Positions 1-7,973 of a stretch of 7,973 nt of DNA are shown piece after piece. The notes under the pieces are model-generated. The model had not been told where the DNA came from. It ran no database searches and was given only the letters and a program-made list of their open reading frames with translations. Position numbers and translations under genes: made by a program. The stretch lies in the IMG/VR virus record IMGVR_UViG_2645727743_000016, positions 1 through 7,973 of that record; one strand, written 5' to 3'. Source of the stretch: a virus (lineage: Duplodnaviria > Heunggongvirae > Uroviricota > Caudoviricetes). Each line of letters begins with the position of its first letter. Positions within the stretch are counted from its first letter, which is position 1.

Positions 1-79
1 TCCCCTGGATCCAGACGGCTTCCAGCGTTTTTAGACGTAAATGCTCGCCGCTTTTGCCTGTAATTTCCGGATATATCAT
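1..79 (-). CDS. Possible 5' end of the next gene downstream of rusA, truncated by the window edge
   Basis: Minus-strand ATG at 77-79, 9 nt after the rusA stop, open to the window edge (about 26 codons, MIYPEITGKSGEHLRLKTLEAVWIQG). No recognisable motif; a Q-antiterminator-position gene by synteny only. Confidence 0.2.
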   Translation of the reverse strand, partial: MIYPEITGKSGEHLRLKTLEAVWIQG

Positions 80-87
80 ATTTACGA

Positions 88-453
88 TCACTCACTCTCA
101 ATTTTGTAAATCTTCACGCCCAGCCGCCCCCCAGGAACGAGCTGACCGCGCACAATATTGATTTCATCAAACTGCTCGTCGTCTATGAGAAGTCCGGCAT
201 GCGTCAGCGCATCCAGTGGTGCTTTCAGGATATTGTCCAGGTCACGACGACGCTTATCCGGTGGCTCTGCAATAATCTTTATCGCCAACCTTCCGGACAG
301 GCTTAATTTCAGCCGCTGCTGGCGAACAATAAGCGCCACAGCACGGCGATAACGCTCACCGGCTTTTGATACAAAATATGTGCTGCCACGACGACGCCAG
401 TAAGTGTTCACCGTTGGCGGGTAAGGCAAAACAAATTCTATGCGTTCAGTCAT
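88..453 (-). CDS. rusA: RusA-family Holliday junction resolvase
   Basis: 121-aa ORF whose translation shows the RusA pattern (PYPPTVNTYWRRRG near the N-terminus, DKRRRDLDNILKAPLDALTHAGLLIDDEQ acidic catalytic core). ATG at 451-453 directly abuts the stop of the upstream gene (TGA then ATG). Recognised from memory of the RusA family, not searched. Confidence 0.88.
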   Translation of the reverse strand: MTERIEFVLPYPPTVNTYWRRRGSTYFVSKAGERYRRAVALIVRQQRLKLSLSGRLAIKIIAEPPDKRRRDLDNILKAPLDALTHAGLLIDDEQFDEINIVRGQLVPGGRLGVKIYKIESE

Positions 454-1512
454 TCATGCTTTCCACTTCAGAACACCCGAATTTCTCGCGTGCATTAAAA
501 AACGAATCAGCAACAACAGCTGGCTGCCGTGTTTTTCTTCAAAATCTTTTACCCCGGCGTGTAGTTCGCTATGGCATTTACGGCACAGCGGAATAACAAA
601 CAAATCATCAGCCTTTGTTCCCATCCCTCCCAGTCCATGACCAATGATGTGATGCGGATCATCTGCCTGATTGCCACACGTCATGCATTTCTGCGTTTTT
701 ACCCAGCGCGTGTATACAGGCATCTCTTCCCGTTGTGGTTTCTGGCGCTGGAGATACTGAGCCGGTGACTCCGGATCAACGGCAATGCTGACCACCGTCT
801 TTTCCTGTGGTGGATTCTGTTGCTGGTGGGCGTGAGGCAACGGCGCAATATTTTTTGTGCGCTGCTTCAGTATGCTGATGGCGGTCTGCTCTCCCGGTAC
901 GATGTCGCTCTCGCGGTATACTGAGCGGATTTTTTCACCCGGAAGCTTCAGGATTCGACGCGCCATATTTTCGGTCATGGCATCCACTACATCATTTACA
1001 GAAGCCCAGCAGCACAATTCAGCCAGCGATAATTCCCGCTCCTGCGTGCCATTCACTGCATGGCGTATGACGTCAATCATCCATGCTGACAGGTTTTGAT
1101 GAGCAAGTTGCCCGAGTGATTCGGAGGTCTGGTCACGCAGCTGGTTGTCGCAGTGCCAGCACAACACCATTGCGCCGATACCATAACGATGTATGACGGT
1201 TTCGCTGTGATGATAATCGCCGTGTGGCCACTGGCAGGATTTAACGTGGCGTAACAGCCAGTCAGACAGCGCACCAGCACCGCCAGCAGCACGAATCACC
1301 CGCTCATCGCTGAAAAATGGCAGTAGTGATTTATCCTCCGCCAATGGCTGGCGAACGGCAGGAACGACTCCGGACGGCAGACCGCGCATGCTTTTCGGTT
1401 CCGGCTCCACCAGAACTCGAGGGTTATGAAATACCTGCATGGATTCACGGCCCGGTTTTAGCACCACCAGCCCAAGTTCCGGTACCGGAACAGGTCGAAG
1501 TAATACCCGCAC
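454..1512 (-). CDS. ydfU: DUF968 family phage protein (YdfU-like) with a C-terminal Cys/His HNH-like zinc-binding motif
   Basis: 352-aa ORF. C-terminal CMTCGNQADDPHH...PLCRKCHSELH is typical of DUF968/YdfU-like prophage proteins. Start uncertain: GTG at 1510-1512 directly after the upstream stop, or ATG at 1438-1440 (MQVFHNP). Lies immediately upstream of rusA, as in Qin-type prophages. Confidence 0.75.
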   Translation of the reverse strand: MRVLLRPVPVPELGLVVLKPGRESMQVFHNPRVLVEPEPKSMRGLPSGVVPAVRQPLAEDKSLLPFFSDERVIRAAGGAGALSDWLLRHVKSCQWPHGDYHHSETVIHRYGIGAMVLCWHCDNQLRDQTSESLGQLAHQNLSAWMIDVIRHAVNGTQERELSLAELCCWASVNDVVDAMTENMARRILKLPGEKIRSVYRESDIVPGEQTAISILKQRTKNIAPLPHAHQQQNPPQEKTVVSIAVDPESPAQYLQRQKPQREEMPVYTRWVKTQKCMTCGNQADDPHHIIGHGLGGMGTKADDLFVIPLCRKCHSELHAGVKDFEEKHGSQLLLLIRFLMHARNSGVLKWKA

Positions 1513-1513
1513 G

Positions 1514-1792
1514 TTACCTCCAGATGCGTTGCTGGAATGTGCGGGACGGACGCGGTGGGCGTTCGGAATAAGGGAGTCTGACGTAGATTATCCAGAGACG
1601 ATAATCGAGGCTGAGGGCTTTCTTAATCTCGTATCCGTGTCTGCGGTAGCGCTGAATCAGCCATTCAGCCTGTTCTTCGGTGCAGGGATCGTGCTGATAC
1701 CAGTCATATTTGAATGCATGAGAGCGCCGCCCGTGTCTGCTGGCAAAGGCGGCTGAATTATCAGAATTGTGTAGTCTGGAATTTTGCGCCAT
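1514..1792 (-). CDS. Hypothetical phage protein (92 aa)
   Basis: ATG at 1790-1792 with GGAG about 10 nt upstream on the minus strand. Stop is adjacent to the DUF968 start, consistent with translational coupling. No recognisable motif. Confidence 0.55.
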   Translation of the reverse strand: MAQNSRLHNSDNSAAFASRHGRRSHAFKYDWYQHDPCTEEQAEWLIQRYRRHGYEIKKALSLDYRLWIIYVRLPYSERPPRPSRTFQQRIWR

Positions 1793-1858
1793 CGGCTTTC
1801 TCCGGTGGCACAGTGTTACTCAACAGGGGTTCAGCCCTGCGCTGAATTGTAGATGAAT

Positions 1859-2119
1859 TCACTCATCTTCAAAAGCAGAAAAACCAGCCTTAATCTCAGC
1901 TTCTTTCAGAGACGGCAACGATGTGACAAATTCATTTGCACGCAAAATAAAACCATCCGTCACAAGCCCATCCACCAAATGAATTAACGCAGCTCCACTC
2001 TTCCTTTGTTGAGACTGTAAACATTTAATACGGCAGTGGCTGACAATTGCGCCATTCTCAACGCGCACAGTATAGAGGCCATCTTCACTAAAAATTTCAC
2101 GTAATTCTTTGATTTTCAT
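1859..2119 (-). CDS. Hypothetical small phage protein (86 aa), rem-like position relative to hok and ydfU
   Basis: ATG at 2117-2119 with AAGGA about 9 nt upstream on the minus strand (the ORF track begins one codon earlier at a TTG). Sits between the Doc cassette terminator and the DUF968 gene. Identity not recognised; the rem comparison is positional inference only. Confidence 0.55.
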   Translation of the reverse strand: MKIKELREIFSEDGLYTVRVENGAIVSHCRIKCLQSQQRKSGAALIHLVDGLVTDGFILRANEFVTSLPSLKEAEIKAGFSAFEDE

Positions 2120-2200
2120 CAACAGAATCCTTCCAGATAAATAGCACTCCCCTGTTTGGGGTCCATCCCTCTTCTCCCTGCGCGCTACTTAAGTGCATCG

Positions 2201-2228
2201 ATTCTAGTCAGGCATACCAGCTAATCAA
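2201..2228 (-). promoter_or_regulatory. Candidate sigma70 promoter for the downstream minus-strand genes (86 aa, 92 aa, DUF968, rusA)
   Basis: Minus-strand reading: TTGATT, 16-nt spacer, TAGAAT (plus-strand 2223-2228 and 2201-2206). Lies just downstream of the strong terminator at 2270-2305 and about 80 nt upstream of the ATG at 2119. Sequence pattern only. Confidence 0.3.
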
Positions 2229-2269
2229 CAAACCCTGGTCGGTTAAATAGAAGAATTGGCTAAAATTTA

Positions 2270-2305
2270 GTCCATTAAAATAAAAAACCCGCCGAAGCGG
2301 GTTTT
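2270..2305 (-). terminator. Rho-independent terminator downstream of the Fic/Doc gene (hairpin is symmetric, potentially bidirectional)
   Basis: AAAACCCGC-cgaa-GCGGGTTTT perfect 9-bp stem at 2284-2305, followed on the minus strand by TTTTTTATTTTAA. Located 15 nt after the Doc stop at 2320. Confidence 0.65.
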
Positions 2306-2319
2306 CATTGGAAGCACCT

Positions 2320-2805
2320 TTAGTTTTGCTGTTCTATTTTAAGCTTGATAGTTTCATACAAAACAATAGTTGCGCTTGTTTTACATAATTCCCGGCTGTC
2401 ATACGCGCGAGACCAATAACACAACCAGTTCTCGAGATCTTCTCGAGTATAGGTTTTGCAGGCCAGTCCCTCTGCCATTTCCACGATTTCATCGCCTGGT
2501 GCTGTTAACTCATAGCCATTCAACAACAAGAAGACGTAACCAGCCATCATAGCTGTTCGTTTGTTCGCATTAGCAAACGGATGATTCTGAATCAGACTTT
2601 CAATCAATACCGATGCCAGTACAAACATGTCATTAGTCTGTTCATACCATCGAACCATGCTGGGACGGGCCTGAGAAGAACTTAAGTTATCTGGACTCAG
2701 AACACCAACGGGCTCATCTGGCGTCTGTAATTCAATTAGGGAATGATTGATTTCAACAAGATCATCAACCGTAAGGTAATGCACTCCTTCAACAATCTCA
2801 GCCAT
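2320..2805 (-). CDS. doc: Fic/Doc family toxin (death-on-curing-like)
   Basis: Translation contains HPFANANKRTAMMAGYVFLLLNGYEL, matching the Fic/Doc motif HxFx(D/N)(A/G)NKR. ATG at 2803-2805 (the ORF track starts 3 codons earlier at a TTG, 2814). Small partner gene ends 18 nt upstream. Confidence 0.82.
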   Translation of the reverse strand: MAEIVEGVHYLTVDDLVEINHSLIELQTPDEPVGVLSPDNLSSSQARPSMVRWYEQTNDMFVLASVLIESLIQNHPFANANKRTAMMAGYVFLLLNGYELTAPGDEIVEMAEGLACKTYTREDLENWLCYWSRAYDSRELCKTSATIVLYETIKLKIEQQN

Positions 2806-2823
2806 AGAGTACAATACCCATCA

Positions 2824-3003
2824 TTACACTTTTGAAAGTTCTTCCATGGCTTTCTCATAACGAGAAAAACCGAAATCAAAAGCATTTTTCACTTGTTCAC
2901 GATGTGCGCAGTTTTCATCAATCACTGGGCGAGGGACTGCCACAACGCTTTTATCGCGAGGCGGAATACTCAACCGCGTGTGTTTTTTGAGTGGGCAGCT
3001 CAT
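2824..3003 (-). CDS. Putative antitoxin partner of the Fic/Doc toxin (59 aa)
   Basis: ATG at 3001-3003 with AAGGA about 8 nt upstream; the ORF track's longer 75-aa form starts at TTG 3051. Small gene immediately upstream of the toxin is the canonical type II arrangement. Sequence family not recognised. Confidence 0.5.
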   Translation of the reverse strand: MSCPLKKHTRLSIPPRDKSVVAVPRPVIDENCAHREQVKNAFDFGFSRYEKAMEELSKV

Positions 3004-3119
3004 ACTAATGAGTCCTTTTGTTTTCCGATTATTGGCAAAGCCATGCACCAAATTTGATACAAAATAGATCTGTTTGAGATCCTTAGGATAGTCTCATGGT
3101 AGCTAAAATTACAACCTCA

Positions 3120-3150
3120 TAATGCGACGAAAAACCCGCCGAAGCGGGTT
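3120..3150 (-). terminator. Rho-independent terminator downstream of hok (hok mRNA 3' hairpin)
   Basis: CCCGC-cgaa-GCGGG hairpin at 3135-3148 with AA/TT extension, followed on the minus strand by TTTTTCG. Lies about 70 nt after the hok stop. The 21-bp core (3130-3150) is identical to 2283-2303. Confidence 0.6.
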
Positions 3151-3218
3151 AAGTGCGGGTGCGTTGAGGATGCCTGACACATCAGAGGCGGCGAGGGATT
3201 TCTCCCCCGCCGGGTCTC

Positions 3219-3374
3219 TTACTCCTCAGGTTCGTAAGCTGTGAAGACAGCGACCTCCGTCTGGCCGGTTCGGATTCGTACCTCGCAGAGGTCTTTCCTC
3301 GTTACCAGTGCCGTCACTATGACGGTTAAACAGATGACGATAAGGGCGATTAACATCGCCTTTTGCTGCTTCAT
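3219..3374 (-). CDS. hokD: Hok/Gef family type I toxin (51 aa), HokD/RelF-like
   Basis: Translation MKQQKAMLIALIVICLTVIVTALVTRKDLCEVRIRTGQTEVAVFTAYEPEE matches HokD/RelF as I recall it (not searched). ATG at 3372-3374 with AAGGAG about 10 nt upstream. An in-frame upstream ATG at 3429-3431 would give a 70-codon form. Confidence 0.88.
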   Translation of the reverse strand: MKQQKAMLIALIVICLTVIVTALVTRKDLCEVRIRTGQTEVAVFTAYEPEE

Positions 3375-3633
3375 AGCCTGCTTCTCCTTGCCTTTCGGCA
3401 CGTAAGAGGCTAACCTACATGTGTTCAGCATGGATTGAGCCTCAGATTAATGTTAAGCGTCTTGCAGGACGCGTAATGTTAACTGGGGCTTTTCTCTATC
3501 TGCCTTTTGGTGTTCATGCCTGAGACAGATAGCCTCAAGCACCCACAGTCATTCTACTTAACTAAGATTTCCCTGCAAACCGTTTTTGTCCGGCACAGTA
3601 AATATCCAACTAAACCAATAGCGTTCGCTGTAT

Positions 3634-3813
3634 TTACCGCCAGTATTCAATGCACGTGACCGCCATGAACACCCCTAAAAAAAGGGCATTTATATGTCCA
3701 AACATTAATATCAAAACATCAATTTTTTCCATATACCTTGCTGTGAAGATGATGGGCATACATGATGCGAACAACCAGAACGCAACAAACAAAAACTGCA
3801 ATGCGTTTTTCAT
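3634..3813 (-). CDS. Possible small hydrophobic (membrane) protein, 59 aa, in an AT-rich island
   Basis: ATG at 3811-3813 with GGGGGA about 5 nt upstream; the ORF track's 72-aa form starts at GTG 3852. Translation is strongly hydrophobic (LQFLFVAFWLFASCMPIIF...ALFLGVFMAVTCI). AT-rich sequence gives long ORFs by chance on both strands, so the call is weak. Confidence 0.3.
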   Translation of the reverse strand: MKNALQFLFVAFWLFASCMPIIFTARYMEKIDVLILMFGHINALFLGVFMAVTCIEYWR

Positions 3814-4024
3814 TATTCCCCCTACAATCAATGTGCAATTACATTTAAACACACCTCAATTTGGCCGGACATATAAATATCTAAACCAGAAAAAATCACT
3901 TACATAGCGTTACAAACTCTTTAGTCTAAATATTCATCGTAAAACATTCCCCATACTTATCAGCCCACTCTACGCCAGGTAGCTCATTGCCTTATCTGGG
4001 AATCTGTAATCAGGTTTCCGTTTT

Positions 4025-4447
4025 TCAGTCGGCTGGTCGTTTAACCGGCATAGTTAACCCATTAATCTGGTTGCCGGATGCTGGTGGATTTTCGCGTTTT
4101 AGTTGTTCATAAAAGTGCACAGCTTTAACCAGTTCTTCTGATGTAACAGGGACTGGTGGGGCAGTGAATAAGGCCTGAATTTCATAGTTCGGCCTGTCGT
4201 TACAATCCTCTTTTTTCGGTACATATTTCCAGTCACCAACCCACAACTCCCCCTGAGAGTCCATAACACCTTTTTTCACGTAGCGATATCGCCACGCTAT
4301 CGGCTCTGCTTCCAGCGATGCCAGTGCAATTTTGAATAACTCGCCCTCTACTCGCGCCATCCCTGAATTGGGGTGGCATTTCGTAATCGCTATTTTTAAT
4401 TTGGCTTCTTCGATTAATTGTTCTTTTGTTAATTCAGTCATTTTCAT
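4025..4447 (-). CDS. Hypothetical phage protein (140 aa)
   Basis: Two in-frame ATGs at 4445-4447 and 4439-4441 (MKM), with AAAGGG about 7 nt upstream and AGGAGG further upstream. No recognisable motif. Confidence 0.6.
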   Translation of the reverse strand: MKMTELTKEQLIEEAKLKIAITKCHPNSGMARVEGELFKIALASLEAEPIAWRYRYVKKGVMDSQGELWVGDWKYVPKKEDCNDRPNYEIQALFTAPPVPVTSEELVKAVHFYEQLKRENPPASGNQINGLTMPVKRPAD

Positions 4448-4537
4448 TACCGCCCTTTCAGGCGGCCTCCTGATGTTCTGAGGGTGCAGAAATCCCTCCG
4501 GTTAAGGATTAAATTTTATTTGCTGTGCTAAATTTAA

Positions 4538-4993
4538 TTATTCAGTTTTTATTCCTGCTCTCAAAACAGCCTCTGCCATTCTGATATCCGGATTTTCTGA
4601 AATCATCTTTTCCGGCGAGTCGCAATCACCACCACATTCAGTTATGCGTTCATGACCAAAACGAATTGTGGTTTTGTGCGCATTAATCATTTGTGTAAGC
4701 GCGTCTGTCAATTCTGCAATGCGTTTATCTTTAACTTCCAGCTCTTTCAGTAAAGCCAGTACGTCAGGATCGCTAACATCAACGACGGTTACGCGCGATT
4801 TCAGGTAATGCTCATCCGCAAAAGTTCGACCAGTTTTAAAATATCCATCATCCCCCTCACCTGCGCAGGCATACACAATATGCGTTCTGGAAAATATGCG
4901 CTGTATCGACATTTCATCGCCGCAAACAGGACATTCCGGCACCTGAATTGGTGAATAACGTTCACGTAATGCCTGGTAATTAGTCTTGCACAC
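4538..4993 (-). CDS. Hypothetical phage protein (151 aa) with paired-Cys motifs and a central coiled-coil-like segment
   Basis: GTG at 4991-4993 with AGGAGA about 7 nt upstream; overlaps the upstream gene's 3' end by 14 nt. Contains ECPVCGDE and ECGGDCDSPE pairs flanking LALLKELEVKDKRIAELTDALTQMI. Family not recognised. Confidence 0.6.
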   Translation of the reverse strand: MCKTNYQALRERYSPIQVPECPVCGDEMSIQRIFSRTHIVYACAGEGDDGYFKTGRTFADEHYLKSRVTVVDVSDPDVLALLKELEVKDKRIAELTDALTQMINAHKTTIRFGHERITECGGDCDSPEKMISENPDIRMAEAVLRAGIKTE

Positions 4994-5285
4994 TGGCTGT
5001 CTCCTGAAAAATCACCGCATGCCCCAGTTTCTCCGCCAGCGCCAGTTCTGCCTTAGCGCCTGCTGACCGCTGCCAGCCTTTCAGCATGTAAATCGCATCC
5101 ACACAACGAATCATTGCCATGCAAATATCCATGTAGTGCGGCTGTGTCAGCCCGTCCGGAAGTACTGCCGGGTTTAAGACGGTATGCCCTTCCCGTTTCA
5201 GTTCCTCTTCTGCCTTGTGAAACGCCTCACGGTTGAAATTTTCATACCCCGTCATTGGACCGGCGATATAAACCCTCACCCTCAC
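4980..5285 (-). CDS. DUF4406 protein (nucleoside 2-deoxyribosyltransferase-like fold)
   Basis: N-terminal VYIAGPMTG...NFNREAF is the hallmark of DUF4406/NDT-like proteins, recognised from memory. GTG start at 5283-5285 overlaps the upstream stop as GTGA; AGGAGG lies 7 nt upstream. Confidence 0.72.
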   Translation of the reverse strand: MRVRVYIAGPMTGYENFNREAFHKAEEELKREGHTVLNPAVLPDGLTQPHYMDICMAMIRCVDAIYMLKGWQRSAGAKAELALAEKLGHAVIFQETASVQD

Positions 5286-5698
5286 GCCATCACCTCCTGA
5301 AAATTACCCTGATAAAACGCCAGCACACGCTGCATAACCTTGCTTTTCCGGCACTCGAGACAGATTATGTTCTGACGCCTGTCGTAGTGGCGTATCTCTC
5401 CATCTGGTAATGAATAAATCAGGCCAGGGTCGCTCTTCTTTTTCGCTGCACCTTTAGACATCTCTTTATGGGCTTTTATCCAGTCTTTACGTGCCTGCTC
5501 AGAAGGGAATATTCCATGCCCTGAACCATATACAACACCACTGTCTACCAGTTCTTTCGCCAGAACTTCAATCAGATGTCTCGTCGCCCCTGTTTCATTT
5601 TCCAGTTGTTTACGCGTTTTCCTACCATCTCTGCGTACCAGTTCCACAATACGCGCCTTTACTTCTTCCCGTTGTTCGGGAGTAAAAACTTTTACCAT
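5282..5698 (-). CDS. Hypothetical phage protein (138 aa), possible N-terminal winged-helix-like segment
   Basis: ATG at 5696-5698 with a strong AGGAGG 5 nt upstream. Stop overlaps the start of the DUF4406 gene. N-terminal segment TRKQLENETGATRHLIEVLAKELVDSGVV looks helix-turn-helix-like; this is inference. Confidence 0.65.
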   Translation of the reverse strand: MVKVFTPEQREEVKARIVELVRRDGRKTRKQLENETGATRHLIEVLAKELVDSGVVYGSGHGIFPSEQARKDWIKAHKEMSKGAAKKKSDPGLIYSLPDGEIRHYDRRQNIICLECRKSKVMQRVLAFYQGNFQEVMA

Positions 5699-5712
5699 AA
5701 GTCCTCCTGAAA

Positions 5713-6459
5713 TTACTTCACAACCCTCAGGTGTCTGACATTCGAACGCCAGCTCTCCCAGTTAAAATTCACCCAGCGACCACCGTTCATGACCATGCGG
5801 TCCATCACACGCTCGCCAAGAAGCGTACTCATCGCTACGTGGTTCAGGTTCGTCAGCATTCCGACACTACGCATCGAAGCCGTTCTGCGGTCGACTATCT
5901 GGTTCAGTGTGACCTGCTCGTTGCGCGTATCCCGCTGCATTCCGATTTCATCCAGGACAAGCAGGTCAACATCACACAACCCCTGTAAAAATTTTTCGCC
6001 TGAGTTTTTGTTGTCGTAGCTGTTGTGTAACGCCAGCATCACATCAGCCACCGTTATCACAATCACGCTGCGACCTTTCGCCAGAAGATGATTGCCAATG
6101 GCGGCTGCAAGGTGGTTCTTTCCGGTACCCGGCTTACCGCTGAACACAAAATTCGTGCACCCGGTCATCAGTTCGTCAGCGATGGATTTTGCCTGGCTCA
6201 GCGCATGTTTTTGCCCGTCGTTCTGCACCTGATAATTCGCAAACGAGCATTTGCTGTGCAGAGGCTGGATGCCCGAACGATTCAGGATTTTTTCCACCCG
6301 CAACTGGCGATTCTGGCGGTTGATCTCCTCGCTACGTTTTCGCCCTTCAGCCAGTTGCCACTCGCGCCACTCATCCACTGTCCGGTACGGCGCGATTACA
6401 TGCTGCGGGGTCAGCTTACGGATACGCTCAAGAACACCACCTGCCGCGATATTTTTCAT
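5713..6459 (-). CDS. DnaC/IstB-family AAA+ helicase loader (phage replication protein P analogue)
   Basis: Walker A GKPGTGKNHLAAAIG and Walker B LLVLDEIG in a 248-aa ORF. ATG at 6457-6459 with GGGGG about 10 nt upstream. Lies immediately downstream of the O-like initiator gene. Confidence 0.9.
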   Translation of the reverse strand: MKNIAAGGVLERIRKLTPQHVIAPYRTVDEWREWQLAEGRKRSEEINRQNRQLRVEKILNRSGIQPLHSKCSFANYQVQNDGQKHALSQAKSIADELMTGCTNFVFSGKPGTGKNHLAAAIGNHLLAKGRSVIVITVADVMLALHNSYDNKNSGEKFLQGLCDVDLLVLDEIGMQRDTRNEQVTLNQIVDRRTASMRSVGMLTNLNHVAMSTLLGERVMDRMVMNGGRWVNFNWESWRSNVRHLRVVK

Positions 6460-6465
6460 GGCCCG

Positions 6466-7431
6466 TTACCCCCTGAACCCCGGCGGAATTTCGGTATCCG
6501 GCTCAGAAATATGATTCACACAACGCTGTACAGACGAACGCCCCAGGCGGATAACCAGTTCATCCCATTTTCCGCGAAGCTTTGACGGACTCATGATATT
6601 TTTTACCCAGAATGGATCCCGCTGCGCCCGACCAAACATTTCACAAATTTGTCTGTGAGTTCTGCCATCCAGCATCCGCATTGTGCGCACGTCGTTGGCC
6701 CATGCGGTCCAGTTGGGTTCTTTCGGTCGCGAAATCTCGCCATCATCGCTGGCGGCCTGCTCGTAAAGACTCACGATTCGCCCCCAGATCCACTGCGCAC
6801 ACGCCAAATCTTCCTGGTTGCCCCACTGGCGTTTTTTTGCACTGAACACAACCGCGTCAGGGTGTCGGGTTAAAAAATCCTGTTCAACCGTCTGCGGGTC
6901 CGGTTGCGAAGCTTCCGGACGAGAAGTGTTTTTATTCTCTGTAGTAATCTCTGTTGTATTCTCTGTAAGATCATCAGGCCATTTTGACCCGATGACATTG
7001 AGTCGTTTTGAACCAATGGAACGTGCCATTTTGGCCTCTTCCATCGTGTCATTCTGACCTGATGGAGCAGCGCATTTTGACCTGATGGATTCGCTCACTT
7101 TGCCACCATCTAAAAGCTCGCTCTCGTAATTAATCGTGTAAAAATTAGTCATATCACGCTTTGATTTATTGAGCTTTTCGCAACGCAAAAGCCCCAGCGT
7201 TTTCAGACTGGCAAATGCGCGTTTTAACGTTGACTCTGACCAGAACGGGAACTGCTCCAGCCATTGTTCTGTTGTGTTATAAATCCAGCGAACACCATCA
7301 CATTCCATGCCGGAACCGGTATCTCTCAACCAGTAGTGCAGTTGTTGCAAAACAATGGCTTCGTTTAAGCCAATTTTCATTGCCAGCTGCGTGTTTATAA
7401 CCAGTGGGCGTTCAGCAAAAAGAAGACTCAT
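6466..7431 (-). CDS. Phage replication initiator / replisome organiser (lambda O-like)
   Basis: N-terminal MSLLFAERPLVINTQLAMKIGLNEAIVLQQLHYWL resembles phage replisome-organiser N-terminal domains. An iteron array and an AT-rich tract sit in the central linker-coding region. Preferred start is ATG 7429-7431; the ORF track's 7485 start is 18 codons upstream. Confidence 0.82.
   Translation of the reverse strand: MSLLFAERPLVINTQLAMKIGLNEAIVLQQLHYWLRDTGSGMECDGVRWIYNTTEQWLEQFPFWSESTLKRAFASLKTLGLLRCEKLNKSKRDMTNFYTINYESELLDGGKVSESIRSKCAAPSGQNDTMEEAKMARSIGSKRLNVIGSKWPDDLTENTTEITTENKNTSRPEASQPDPQTVEQDFLTRHPDAVVFSAKKRQWGNQEDLACAQWIWGRIVSLYEQAASDDGEISRPKEPNWTAWANDVRTMRMLDGRTHRQICEMFGRAQRDPFWVKNIMSPSKLRGKWDELVIRLGRSSVQRCVNHISEPDTEIPPGFRG
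6927..6970. repeat. AT-rich tract with three TCTCTGT repeats at 12-bp spacing (origin unwinding element candidate)
   Basis: TCTCTGT at 6936-6942, 6948-6954 and 6960-6966 within gtgtttttattctctgtagtaatctctgttgtattctctgtaaga. Directly adjacent to the iteron array, on the side lambda-type origins carry their AT-rich region. Confidence 0.5.
6980..7093. repeat. Iteron array: five direct repeats at about 23-bp periodicity (candidate origin of replication inside the O-like gene)
   Basis: Repeats begin at 6980 (CATTTTGACCCGATGACATTG), 7004 (TCGTTTTGAACCAATGGAACG), 7027 (CATTTTGGCCTCTTCCATCG), 7050 (CATTCTGACCTGATGGAGCAG) and 7073 (CATTTTGACCTGATGGATTCG). Approximate consensus CATTTTGACCYGATGR. Confidence 0.6.
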
Positions 7432-7873
7432 AATTCCATCCAGCTTTTTGTTGGTATTGCTGTCGATACGCAAGCTTGAAAGCAATTGCTTTTTCTATAA
7501 GTTCGTCAGTTTCACGATCTACAACGGCAGGATCTGCAAAAAGCAGTCCGGATTCCACCACATCGCCATATTCTTTATTTAACCCGGCGATCATGTACGT
7601 AATACTTTTTCCATCACTGATCTCACGATACAACCTGAAATCACTAATCCGGATAGCCTCCATAATTGCAGGCACTAGCGCTGTGAACTTTTCACGCTTA
7701 TCCCTGGTGTCGATAGCCTTCCAGCGTTCGAATATCTTCACTCGATTAACGCTAAGCGCTCGCTGATCAACCGCGCCACCTTCATATGTGACACGCTGAA
7801 CATCGATGTTCGGGCGCTCTTTCAAAGCCCAGAATGCTTCAGTGATTAATATCGTCGCCTGCTCCTGTGTCAT
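7412..7873 (-). CDS. Hypothetical phage protein (153 aa) immediately upstream of the replication initiator
   Basis: ATG at 7871-7873. Its 3' end overlaps the preferred O-like start by 20 nt, out of frame. No recognisable motif; occupies the position of cII/YdaT-type regulators in lambdoid prophages, which is synteny inference only. Confidence 0.6.
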   Translation of the reverse strand: MTQEQATILITEAFWALKERPNIDVQRVTYEGGAVDQRALSVNRVKIFERWKAIDTRDKREKFTALVPAIMEAIRISDFRLYREISDGKSITYMIAGLNKEYGDVVESGLLFADPAVVDRETDELIEKAIAFKLAYRQQYQQKAGWNYESSFC

Positions 7874-7973
7874 TCCTGGTTGGATTTGCCCCTATATTTC
7901 CAGACATCTGTTATCACTTAACCCATTACAAGCCCGCTGCCGCAGATATTCCCGTGGCGAGCGATAACCCAGC

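Follow-up and report, generated by a model that had tools for sequence, protein, structure and literature searches.

Identical terminator hairpins on both sides of a Doc toxin cassette beside hok in a lambdoid Escherichia coli prophage, and their possible role in cassette exchange

The DNA analysed here (the window; 7,973 nt, positions 1 to 7,973 of IMG/VR record IMGVR_UViG_2645727743_000016) belongs to a lambdoid prophage of E. coli, within its early-right (nin) region, and all of its genes lie on the minus strand. It carries a hok/sok toxin–antitoxin (TA) module followed by a cassette of two genes, one for a small protein and one for a Fic/Doc toxin, and the same hairpin sequence stands at the end of each unit. 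The two units are probably adjacent morons, each running from promoter to terminator, with identical terminators that serve as short-homology crossover points for cassette exchange. A type I module (hok/sok) would then be followed by a type II module (a 59 amino acid (aa) candidate antitoxin plus Doc), each ending in its own copy of the terminator AACCCGCUUCGGCGGGUUUU.

The 21-mer AAAAACCCGCCGAAGCGGGTT occurs exactly at 2283–2303 and 3130–3150, and no third match was found in the window on either strand with up to three mismatches allowed. It was the sole perfect direct repeat of at least 21 nt in a repeat scan of the window (spacing 847), and two matches were seen in none of 200 dinucleotide shuffles, a statistic that overstates how special the identity is because the exact sequence is a widely used terminator. 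The bases bordering the two copies differ (a and g at 2282 and 3129, t and a at 2304 and 3151), so the repeat is exactly 21 nt long. Both copies, taken on the minus strand, have the sequence AACCCGCUUCGGCGGGUUUUU, which gives a 5 bp stem of G+C pairs with a UUCG loop, followed by a U-tract. The 826 bp between the copies (2304–3129) hold, on the minus strand throughout, an open reading frame (ORF) of 59 aa (2824–3003), a Fic/Doc ORF of 161 aa (2320–2805) and the 126 bp that precede them; the G+C content of the cassette is 42%, compared to 48–50% for the backbone. A preliminary description of this DNA had reported the identical 21-mers at these positions, with one small gene, a Fic/Doc toxin and their upstream region between them, and the exact matches and the ORFs agree with it on both counts.

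The distal gene of the cassette, doc (2320–2805, minus strand), encodes a 161-aa toxin of the death-on-curing family, with a Fic fold. It matches Pfam Fic (1.2e-11, 45.7 bits, threshold 24), passes the family threshold of NCBIfam TIGR01550 DOC_P1 (127.9 bits, cut-off 38.65) and matches solved Doc structures (9vzc, 6.7e-13; P1 Doc 3k33, 5.5e-5); the RefSeq entry for the 161-aa protein (WP_000818165.1) is annotated as a Doc-family toxin. Doc toxins act by phosphorylating EF-Tu and are neutralised by their partner. The catalytic motif of Doc is HxFx(D/N)(A/G)NKR, in which a K replaces the G of Fic, and the translation carries H75-P-F-A-N-A-N-K-R83, aligned with the motif of 9vzc. The hairpin at 2283–2303 (minus strand) lies 16 nt past the doc stop codon and is followed by six U. 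It has a folding energy of −14.9 kcal/mol (z −4.0), was flagged by a terminator scan, and is the predicted terminator of the antitoxin–doc operon, as had been suggested beforehand. Rfam also returned rsmX, isrK and istR matches (2282–2371, 3129–3210 and 2281–2360), all below threshold and anchored only on the hairpins, and these were rejected as false positives.

The gene for the candidate antitoxin (2824–3003, minus strand) lies 18 nt upstream of doc, and its 59-aa product belongs to no described family: searches of Pfam, NCBIfam and PDB sequences at permissive thresholds, and of PADLOC, gave no hit. It accompanies doc in every context examined (66–100% identity). Its 15 homologues are all annotated as 'hypothetical' or 'phage protein', are of enterobacterial phage, and have an invariant C-terminal half. 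An AlphaFold model of modest confidence (mean pLDDT 73) contains only a C-terminal helix (residues 34–57). Membership of the Phd/YefM family was considered and rejected because of the lack of a match in Pfam, NCBIfam or PDB and the single helix of the model, and the protein is not filed as Phd for these reasons. Gene order and co-inheritance suggest that the 59-aa protein is the antitoxin, and that it forms with Doc a functional TA pair. As in Phd/Doc of phage P1, a type II TA system of the Doc family, the toxin has the Doc motif, and its gene directly follows a small one, the two being carried by a phage; the 59-aa protein differs in showing no detectable similarity to Phd/YefM, and its model has no folded N-terminal DNA-binding domain. 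The self-contained Doc TA cassette of the preliminary description is thus consistent with the family hits of the toxin and the small upstream gene, and of the two protein searches that it proposed, one identified the 161-aa protein as Doc (TIGR01550 and solved Docs) while the other left the 59-aa protein without a family. If its role is true, this partner of Doc would represent a new antitoxin family.

The DNA upstream of the pair (3004–3129, minus strand) is a mosaic unit between the right hairpin and the antitoxin start codon. In a group of genomes that includes O157, O121 and O104, the match to the window ends at 3003 and a different segment fills the space to the hairpin. The version in the window (variant 1) carries a candidate sigma-70 promoter (3085–3114, minus strand), with a −35 box TTGTAA at 3114–3109, an 18 nt spacer and a −10 box TATCCT at 3090–3085. 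The second variant has an equivalent, TTGTGA-18-TATGCT, and the −10 block is conserved across variants. The TTGTAA-18-TATCCT site was read by eye and from its conservation, and lies under the threshold of the consensus promoter scan, which found no promoter for the cassette. An inverted repeat (GATCTGTTTGAGATC, 3067–3081) just downstream of the candidate −10 box is a candidate operator, and is confined to upstream variant 1.

The hok/sok module occupies the other side of the right hairpin, with all of its features on the minus strand. The 51-aa toxin (3219–3374) is of the hokD type (Pfam HOK_GEF, 3e-23; RefSeq hokD, WP_000813254.1), a mok-like ORF (3219–3431) overlaps its gene, and the Rfam sok family RF01794 matches 3369–3544 (118.9 bits, cut-off 59). 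The full-length hok mRNA would extend over 3130–3544, with the sok antisense region in its 5′ part, and a consensus scan placed a promoter-like site at 3579–3551. In both the minimum-energy and the centroid folds, tac (GGGUGCUUGAGG, at the 5′ end from 3544) pairs with fbi (CCUCAACGCACCC, 3169–3157), a fold-back that is the classical architecture of hok mRNA. The 419 nt RNA from 3544 to 3126 folds at −173.2 kcal/mol (z −7.3), with its two ends paired to each other and the hairpin remaining at the terminus. The right copy (3130–3150, an exact match, −13.9 kcal/mol) is the predicted hok mRNA terminator because it is the terminal structure directly after fbi, and this agrees with the earlier assignment. 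The Hok peptide, the sok/mok region and the 5′–3′ fold-back are all found here, and the Hok peptide, sok/mok region and tac–fbi pairing are in common with hok/sok of plasmid R1 and the chromosomal hokD (relF) of the Qin prophage. Judged by their sequences, both Doc and hok/sok are ordinary members of their families.

Homology to hok starts at window 3130/3131 in most of the matches listed (4938 E. coli genomes matched). Alignments to plasmid hok end 27–65 nt before the hairpin (query 1358/1396, equal to window 3157/3195), the 3′ flanks of the plasmids being outside the comparison. The gene order of K-12 Qin is relB-relE-hokD-hairpin-rem, with hok behind relBE as had been stated for Qin-type prophages, and the same hairpin follows hokD and precedes rem, as it does here. 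The TA partner is placed differently, relBE being upstream of hokD in Qin whereas Doc lies downstream, beyond the terminator, in the window. The upstream side of hok is also variable among the comparison loci from E. coli genomes and IMG/VR (labelled by L-numbers), where a Paa adhesin, a Sll1717-type P-loop ATPase, a STAS-like plus ATP-binding pair, relBE (Qin) and IS3 are found (L001, 2532–3290; L003, 2426–3866; L005, 3737–5104; L224, 1817–2343; L009, 3695–4857), so that hok is flanked by cargo on both sides.

The Doc cassette is present in 129 of 5,426 E. coli genomes, chromosomal every time, and in all seven E. coli loci that were opened it lies directly after hokD. The downstream flank of these loci varies (a rem-like gene, a DUF968 group, a DUF1367 group or a RelE/HTH pair) and breaks at the hairpin. 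Partial matches to the cassette start at window 2277–2284 in nearly all of the matches listed, and no fewer than 13 unrelated left flanks abut the far side of the hairpin, with the divergence starting at the first base past the A-tract. In the window, the left hairpin is followed by a backbone spacer (2200–2282, minus strand) that contains a promoter-like site (2228–2201) for the rem-like gene. This gene (1859–2119, minus strand; 86 aa, a hypothetical protein in RefSeq), taken from the ORF list, is the first of the backbone past the cassette, and beyond it lie genes for a 92-aa protein, a DUF968/HNH protein (454–1512) and RusA (88–453).

Relatives without the cassette had been expected to hold a single copy of the 21-mer, and this is what was found. 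In L005 and L006 the window-type left flank and spacer are followed by one hairpin and then the hok flank, and in L001–L003 and K-12 Qin the rem-like gene is likewise joined to hok by a single hairpin. Empty and filled sites can be paired for at least three downstream flanks: the window-type flank (empty in L005 and L006; filled in the window, L004 and L008), the 'gtaaaccagaatgccagg' flank (empty in L015 and many others; filled in L007) and the 'gctaatcaactacgc' flank (empty in L095 and L103; filled in L116). In every case, the single hairpin of the empty site joins the outer flanks of the two copies. None of the phage GenBank records carries the whole cassette beside hok at high identity, and the Doc homologues found there, in Salmonella phage SW-37 and a Pseudomonas phage, are distant. 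A scan of genome contigs located the hok–hairpin junction only in Escherichia, Shigella and two metagenome bins.

Other cargo occupies the same position. Fourteen of 120 hok–hairpin loci from IMG/VR have a second hairpin within 2.5 kb, and between the copies are Doc (six loci), the defence system Rosmer (six) or a helix-turn-helix (HTH) plus peptidase pair (two). The distance between copies is 840–847 bp for Doc, 1835 or 1865 bp for Rosmer and 1348 bp for HTH plus Peptidase_M78, and all of these cassettes are co-oriented with hok and have the hairpin on both sides. The Rosmer cassettes are of three RmrT/RmrA variants (RmrA down to 6e-105, RmrT down to 7e-93), and a Rosmer cassette of at least 97% identity is bracketed by the hairpin after hok every time, with two different downstream backbones. 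The preliminary description had proposed a hotspot for the exchange of toxin modules, and the presence of Rosmer and HTH/M78-peptidase cassettes in the same slot is in keeping with that. In O104:H4 (L010, 1908–2486), genes for a RelE/ParE toxin and an HTH protein lie on the opposite strand immediately past the distal hairpin of Doc; because this pair adjoins the Doc cassette, three TA modules are packed together in that strain.

The origin of the left hairpin was examined in a survey of 80 Doc loci from IMG/VR that included loci without hok. Close relatives (at least 93% identity) are mostly found after hok. In L250, L251 and L256 there is no hok and no upstream hairpin, and doc is followed by the hairpin and a backbone with the same backbone junctions. 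Distant cassettes (66–76% identity) lie among tail genes, before a gpM-like gene or between gpK-like and gpI-like genes (Pfam). When the 3′ ends were aligned, every lineage had such a hairpin immediately behind the doc stop codon: L301 with the exact sequence, L278 with a changed loop, L289 with paired changes in the stem (CCCAC...GUGGG), and L274 and L283 with altered forms. This pattern indicates that the hairpin descended with the cassette and was not created by an insertion beside hok. As Doc cassettes without hok end in the hairpin or in a diverged derivative, each module most likely brought its own copy. The earlier proposal, that a toxin moron had inserted at or recombined through the hok terminator and duplicated it, is therefore retained in part: the breakpoint data favour recombination through the terminator, and duplication is unlikely since Doc cassettes without hok possess their own hairpin. 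In L256, a perfect 22 bp palindrome (TACCAAAACGATCGTTTTGGTA, about 2170–2191) lies upstream of the hok-free Doc cassette, and L250 is deleted at this place.

Different genomes show the hairpin joined to hok, to doc or to backbone independently of the other two, and these junctions are nucleotide-identical. The same hairpin–backbone junction is common to loci in which hok is followed by the hairpin and backbone, to those in which hok, hairpin, doc and hairpin precede the backbone, and to those with doc, hairpin and backbone but no hok (L250, L256). Exchange within 20–21 nt of identity would be the simplest account of all three linkages. It would also account for the single hairpin of cassette-free relatives, and for the occurrence of the same cassette on many downstream backbones and of other cargo in the slot. 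The right copy would stop the hok mRNA after fbi and the left copy would stop the antitoxin–doc transcript, shielding the rem-like gene; as each unit ends in its own copy of a generic terminator, the repeat would not be an insertion scar. Being identical over 20–21 nt, the terminators could act as homology patches where phage or host recombination joins, removes and re-assorts modules, with the crossovers probably falling inside the hairpin. The most plausible route would be Red/RecT-type single-strand annealing, or slippage between direct repeats. Experiments have shown that Red-beta drives exchange between lambda and defective prophages where the homology is short or diverged (PMC3945230). 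The cassette would reach a new backbone through one crossover in the long homology of hok and another in the distal hairpin, it would be lost precisely if the two direct copies recombined, and integration of a circle with one hairpin would insert it, as has been proposed for the promoter-early stem-loop (PeSL) cassettes of T4-type phages (PMC2839356).

The hairpin itself is a generic terminator. The exact 20–21-mer lies 37 nt past rpsI, as the terminator of the rplM-rpsI operon (L221/L222, about 1201–1221), and rnpB, also in the core genome of E. coli, has three tandem copies of it close to its 3′ side, with 113 bp spacing (L223, 1203, 1316 and 1429). It is found at no fewer than three places in each of the 5426 complete E. 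coli genomes (median 6, maximum 13). A 5 bp stem of G+C pairs closed on a UUCG loop would permit only about 16 sequences, and with so generic a hairpin the identity of two terminators is far less improbable than the shuffle test implies. Palindromes of the repetitive extragenic palindromic (REP) and bacterial interspersed mosaic element (BIME) type have hundreds of intergenic copies per genome and are often clustered. A dispersed element of this kind was rejected for the hairpin, which has 3–13 places per genome and is, at the sites examined, the terminator of rpsI, rnpB or hokD. The preliminary description had named a common, REP-like 21-mer as a finding that would count against it; the 21-mer is indeed a common terminator (rpsI, rnpB and about 85 phage contexts), but its copy number is not that of REP elements.

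Several observations weigh against exchange at the terminators. A scan of IMG/VR for the 20-mer matched at least 120 contigs, with 122 occurrences among the matches listed, and about 85 of these have flanks that are unrelated to hok and wide-ranging in base composition; a hairpin this common is expected to be shared by neighbouring modules without any role in recombination. Many of the IMG/VR loci are one prophage sampled repeatedly, so that the independent events number a handful and not dozens. A synthetic empty-site query at 99% identity or above revealed no recent precise deletion in the prophage lineage: matches at 99.7–99.9% (eight among those listed, with 18 records in the band of at least 99%) all keep the cassette, and the best cassette-free matches are only 95.7% identical. 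With no recent gain or loss found, exchange must be rare. In L009 (O121:H19), the hok-side hairpin (3348–3368) has three mismatches (AAAAAACCGCCGAAGTAGGTT) that weaken its stem, while the Doc-side copy is intact, and therefore the copies are not being homogenised. The 20–21 nt of identity are about the shortest homology on which recombination is efficient. The initial capture of a cassette between two copies of the hairpin is also left unexplained, since a donor with a hairpin on one side only would need a second, non-homologous join.

Three other explanations have been put beside exchange at the terminators. The bracket might be a coincidence of independent, non-homologous moron insertions, each using the commonest small UUCG-loop terminator, with no part for the hairpin in recombination. 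The exact 20–21-mer at the ends of rpsI and rnpB, its abundance in all E. coli genomes and in unrelated phage contexts, the roughly 16 sequences that this type of stem and loop would allow, and the fact that the hairpin is native to both the hok and the Doc modules are all compatible with coincidence. It leaves unexplained that the hairpin–backbone junction of the hok, Doc and Rosmer modules is identical to the nucleotide, that six cassette types abut the hairpin with none of the 60–90 nt spacer remaining, and that mosaic breakpoints are concentrated no more than about 6 nt from the hairpin, and we consider it unlikely. Alternatively, a Doc cassette lacking a terminator might have inserted at the hok terminator and duplicated 21 bp in the manner of a long target-site duplication. 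The copies are perfectly identical over 21 nt, cassette-free sites hold exactly one of them, and five other cassettes in the slot are bracketed likewise, as such a scar would predict. This is nevertheless very unlikely, given that Doc cassettes without hok already carry the hairpin or a derivative after the stop codon (including L289 with its paired stem changes), that L250 and L256 have doc, hairpin and backbone with neither hok nor a second hairpin, and that the cassette, whose ends were screened for inverted repeats only as far as the hairpins, has no transposase or integrase among its two ORFs (ORF list, Pfam). A 21 bp duplication is also, to our knowledge, far longer than those of known transposases. 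A transposon or insertion sequence with a target-site duplication was rejected, as neither ORF of the cassette matches a transposase and Doc cassettes without hok have the hairpin natively.

A dedicated site is the third of these, in which a specific prophage protein, such as a structure-specific nuclease or a recombinase, would recognise the hairpin and capture cassettes. The co-oriented, array-like cassettes that each end in the same palindromic element would fit such a site, structure-specific nucleases are encoded close by (RusA, 88–453; DUF968/HNH, 454–1512), and the same possibility was raised by the authors of the PeSL work for T4-type phages (PMC2839356). It is highly improbable here, with no integrase or recombinase gene linked to the array within the window, an element of only 20 nt with a 5–7 bp stem that is identical to housekeeping terminators without such behaviour, and no recent mobility found with the empty-site query. 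The attC sites of integrons, which are recognised by IntI, are far longer than a 20 nt hairpin, and an integron cassette array was rejected on the size of the hairpin and the lack of an integrase in the window.

The moron concept reportedly goes back to work by Juhala and Hendrix on lambdoid phages, and is said to be reviewed in 'The moron comes of age'. The Doc cassette probably fits the definition, being an independent unit between genes that are adjacent in relatives, with a host-affecting cargo gene, a distinct G+C content and a candidate promoter, and it appears to end in its own predicted terminator. Defence hotspots in P2-like prophages and P4-like satellites have reportedly been described by Rousset et al. 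in 2022. The slot after hok is similar to these in being a fixed position in a temperate phage that holds alternative TA or anti-phage systems; the phage family and the position differ, and the bracketing by identical terminators is seen at this locus and does not come from the P2/P4 hotspot work. The regulatory sequences of morons are usually not regarded as a vehicle of mobility (PMC2839356). At this locus, unlike ordinary morons, both joints of the cassette fall on the terminator, and alternative cassettes of several kinds use the slot.

The closest analogue of the bracket is provided by the PeSL cassettes of the T4-type phages RB49 and phi1, described by Arbiol et al. 2010 (PMC2839356), which are transcriptionally insulated and have been proposed to shuffle by homologous recombination between the elements. 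In both cases, two copies of a terminator stem-loop surround a cassette and one is present at the empty site. PeSL elements are about 100 bp long and include a conserved strong promoter (PMC2839356), whereas only 20–21 nt are common here and the promoters and post-hairpin sequences differ. Mini-circles have been demonstrated for PeSL (PMC2839356), which belongs to a different phage family. It may work like a PeSL, but it is not a member of that group. For lambdoid phages, short conserved boundary sequences have been proposed to mediate mosaicism, as summarised in PMC3029335. The idea is of a short junction sequence that targets homologous recombination, and at this locus one such sequence would be identifiable as a predicted terminator. 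In a literature search, itself incomplete, neither a hotspot linked to hokD nor morons bracketed by terminators were found described for lambdoid phages.

If exchange at the terminators is true, the shuffling of accessory genes in lambdoid prophages would be targeted and non-disruptive, and not purely illegitimate. Terminator-targeted shuffling has been argued for T4-type phages and not shown for lambdoid phages, and the locus does not overturn current views. Thousands of E. coli genomes could be surveyed over the interval from the hokD terminator to the next hairpin copy, to catalogue their TA and anti-phage cargo.

A second cargo slot appears to exist at the gpM side. In many IMG/VR contigs that look unrelated, a gpM-like minor tail gene is preceded by the same hairpin, with TTTATGCCCGGAG (or TTTATGGAG) between it and the start codon. 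Directly upstream of this element, which lies at 3035–3065 in both L274 and L294 and at about 4125–4150 in L344, is Doc in the first two and Rosmer in the third. In L283 (about 52–75), a Doc cassette with this hairpin and ribosome-binding site lies between gpK-like and gpI-like genes. A far-reaching and unlikely extension would make the hok terminator hairpin a portable recombination site that builds an integron-like array of TA and defence cassettes, each running from promoter to terminator, in lambdoid prophages, those with one hairpin moving between the nin slot and the gpM slot as circles or by single-strand annealing, perhaps helped by structure-specific nucleases of the prophage.

Two other features of the window lie outside the bracketed region. 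Between the hok promoter and a 140-aa gene is a segment of low G+C content (3591–4024; 38%) that may be a small moron; its minus-strand ORF (3634–3852) encodes a hydrophobic protein of 72 aa without a family match in Pfam or NCBIfam. Inside a minus-strand gene of the replication-gene region, at 6975–7087, there are three direct repeats of about 20 nt (CATTTTGACCYGATG core) spaced by 70 and 23 nt, which resemble origin iterons.

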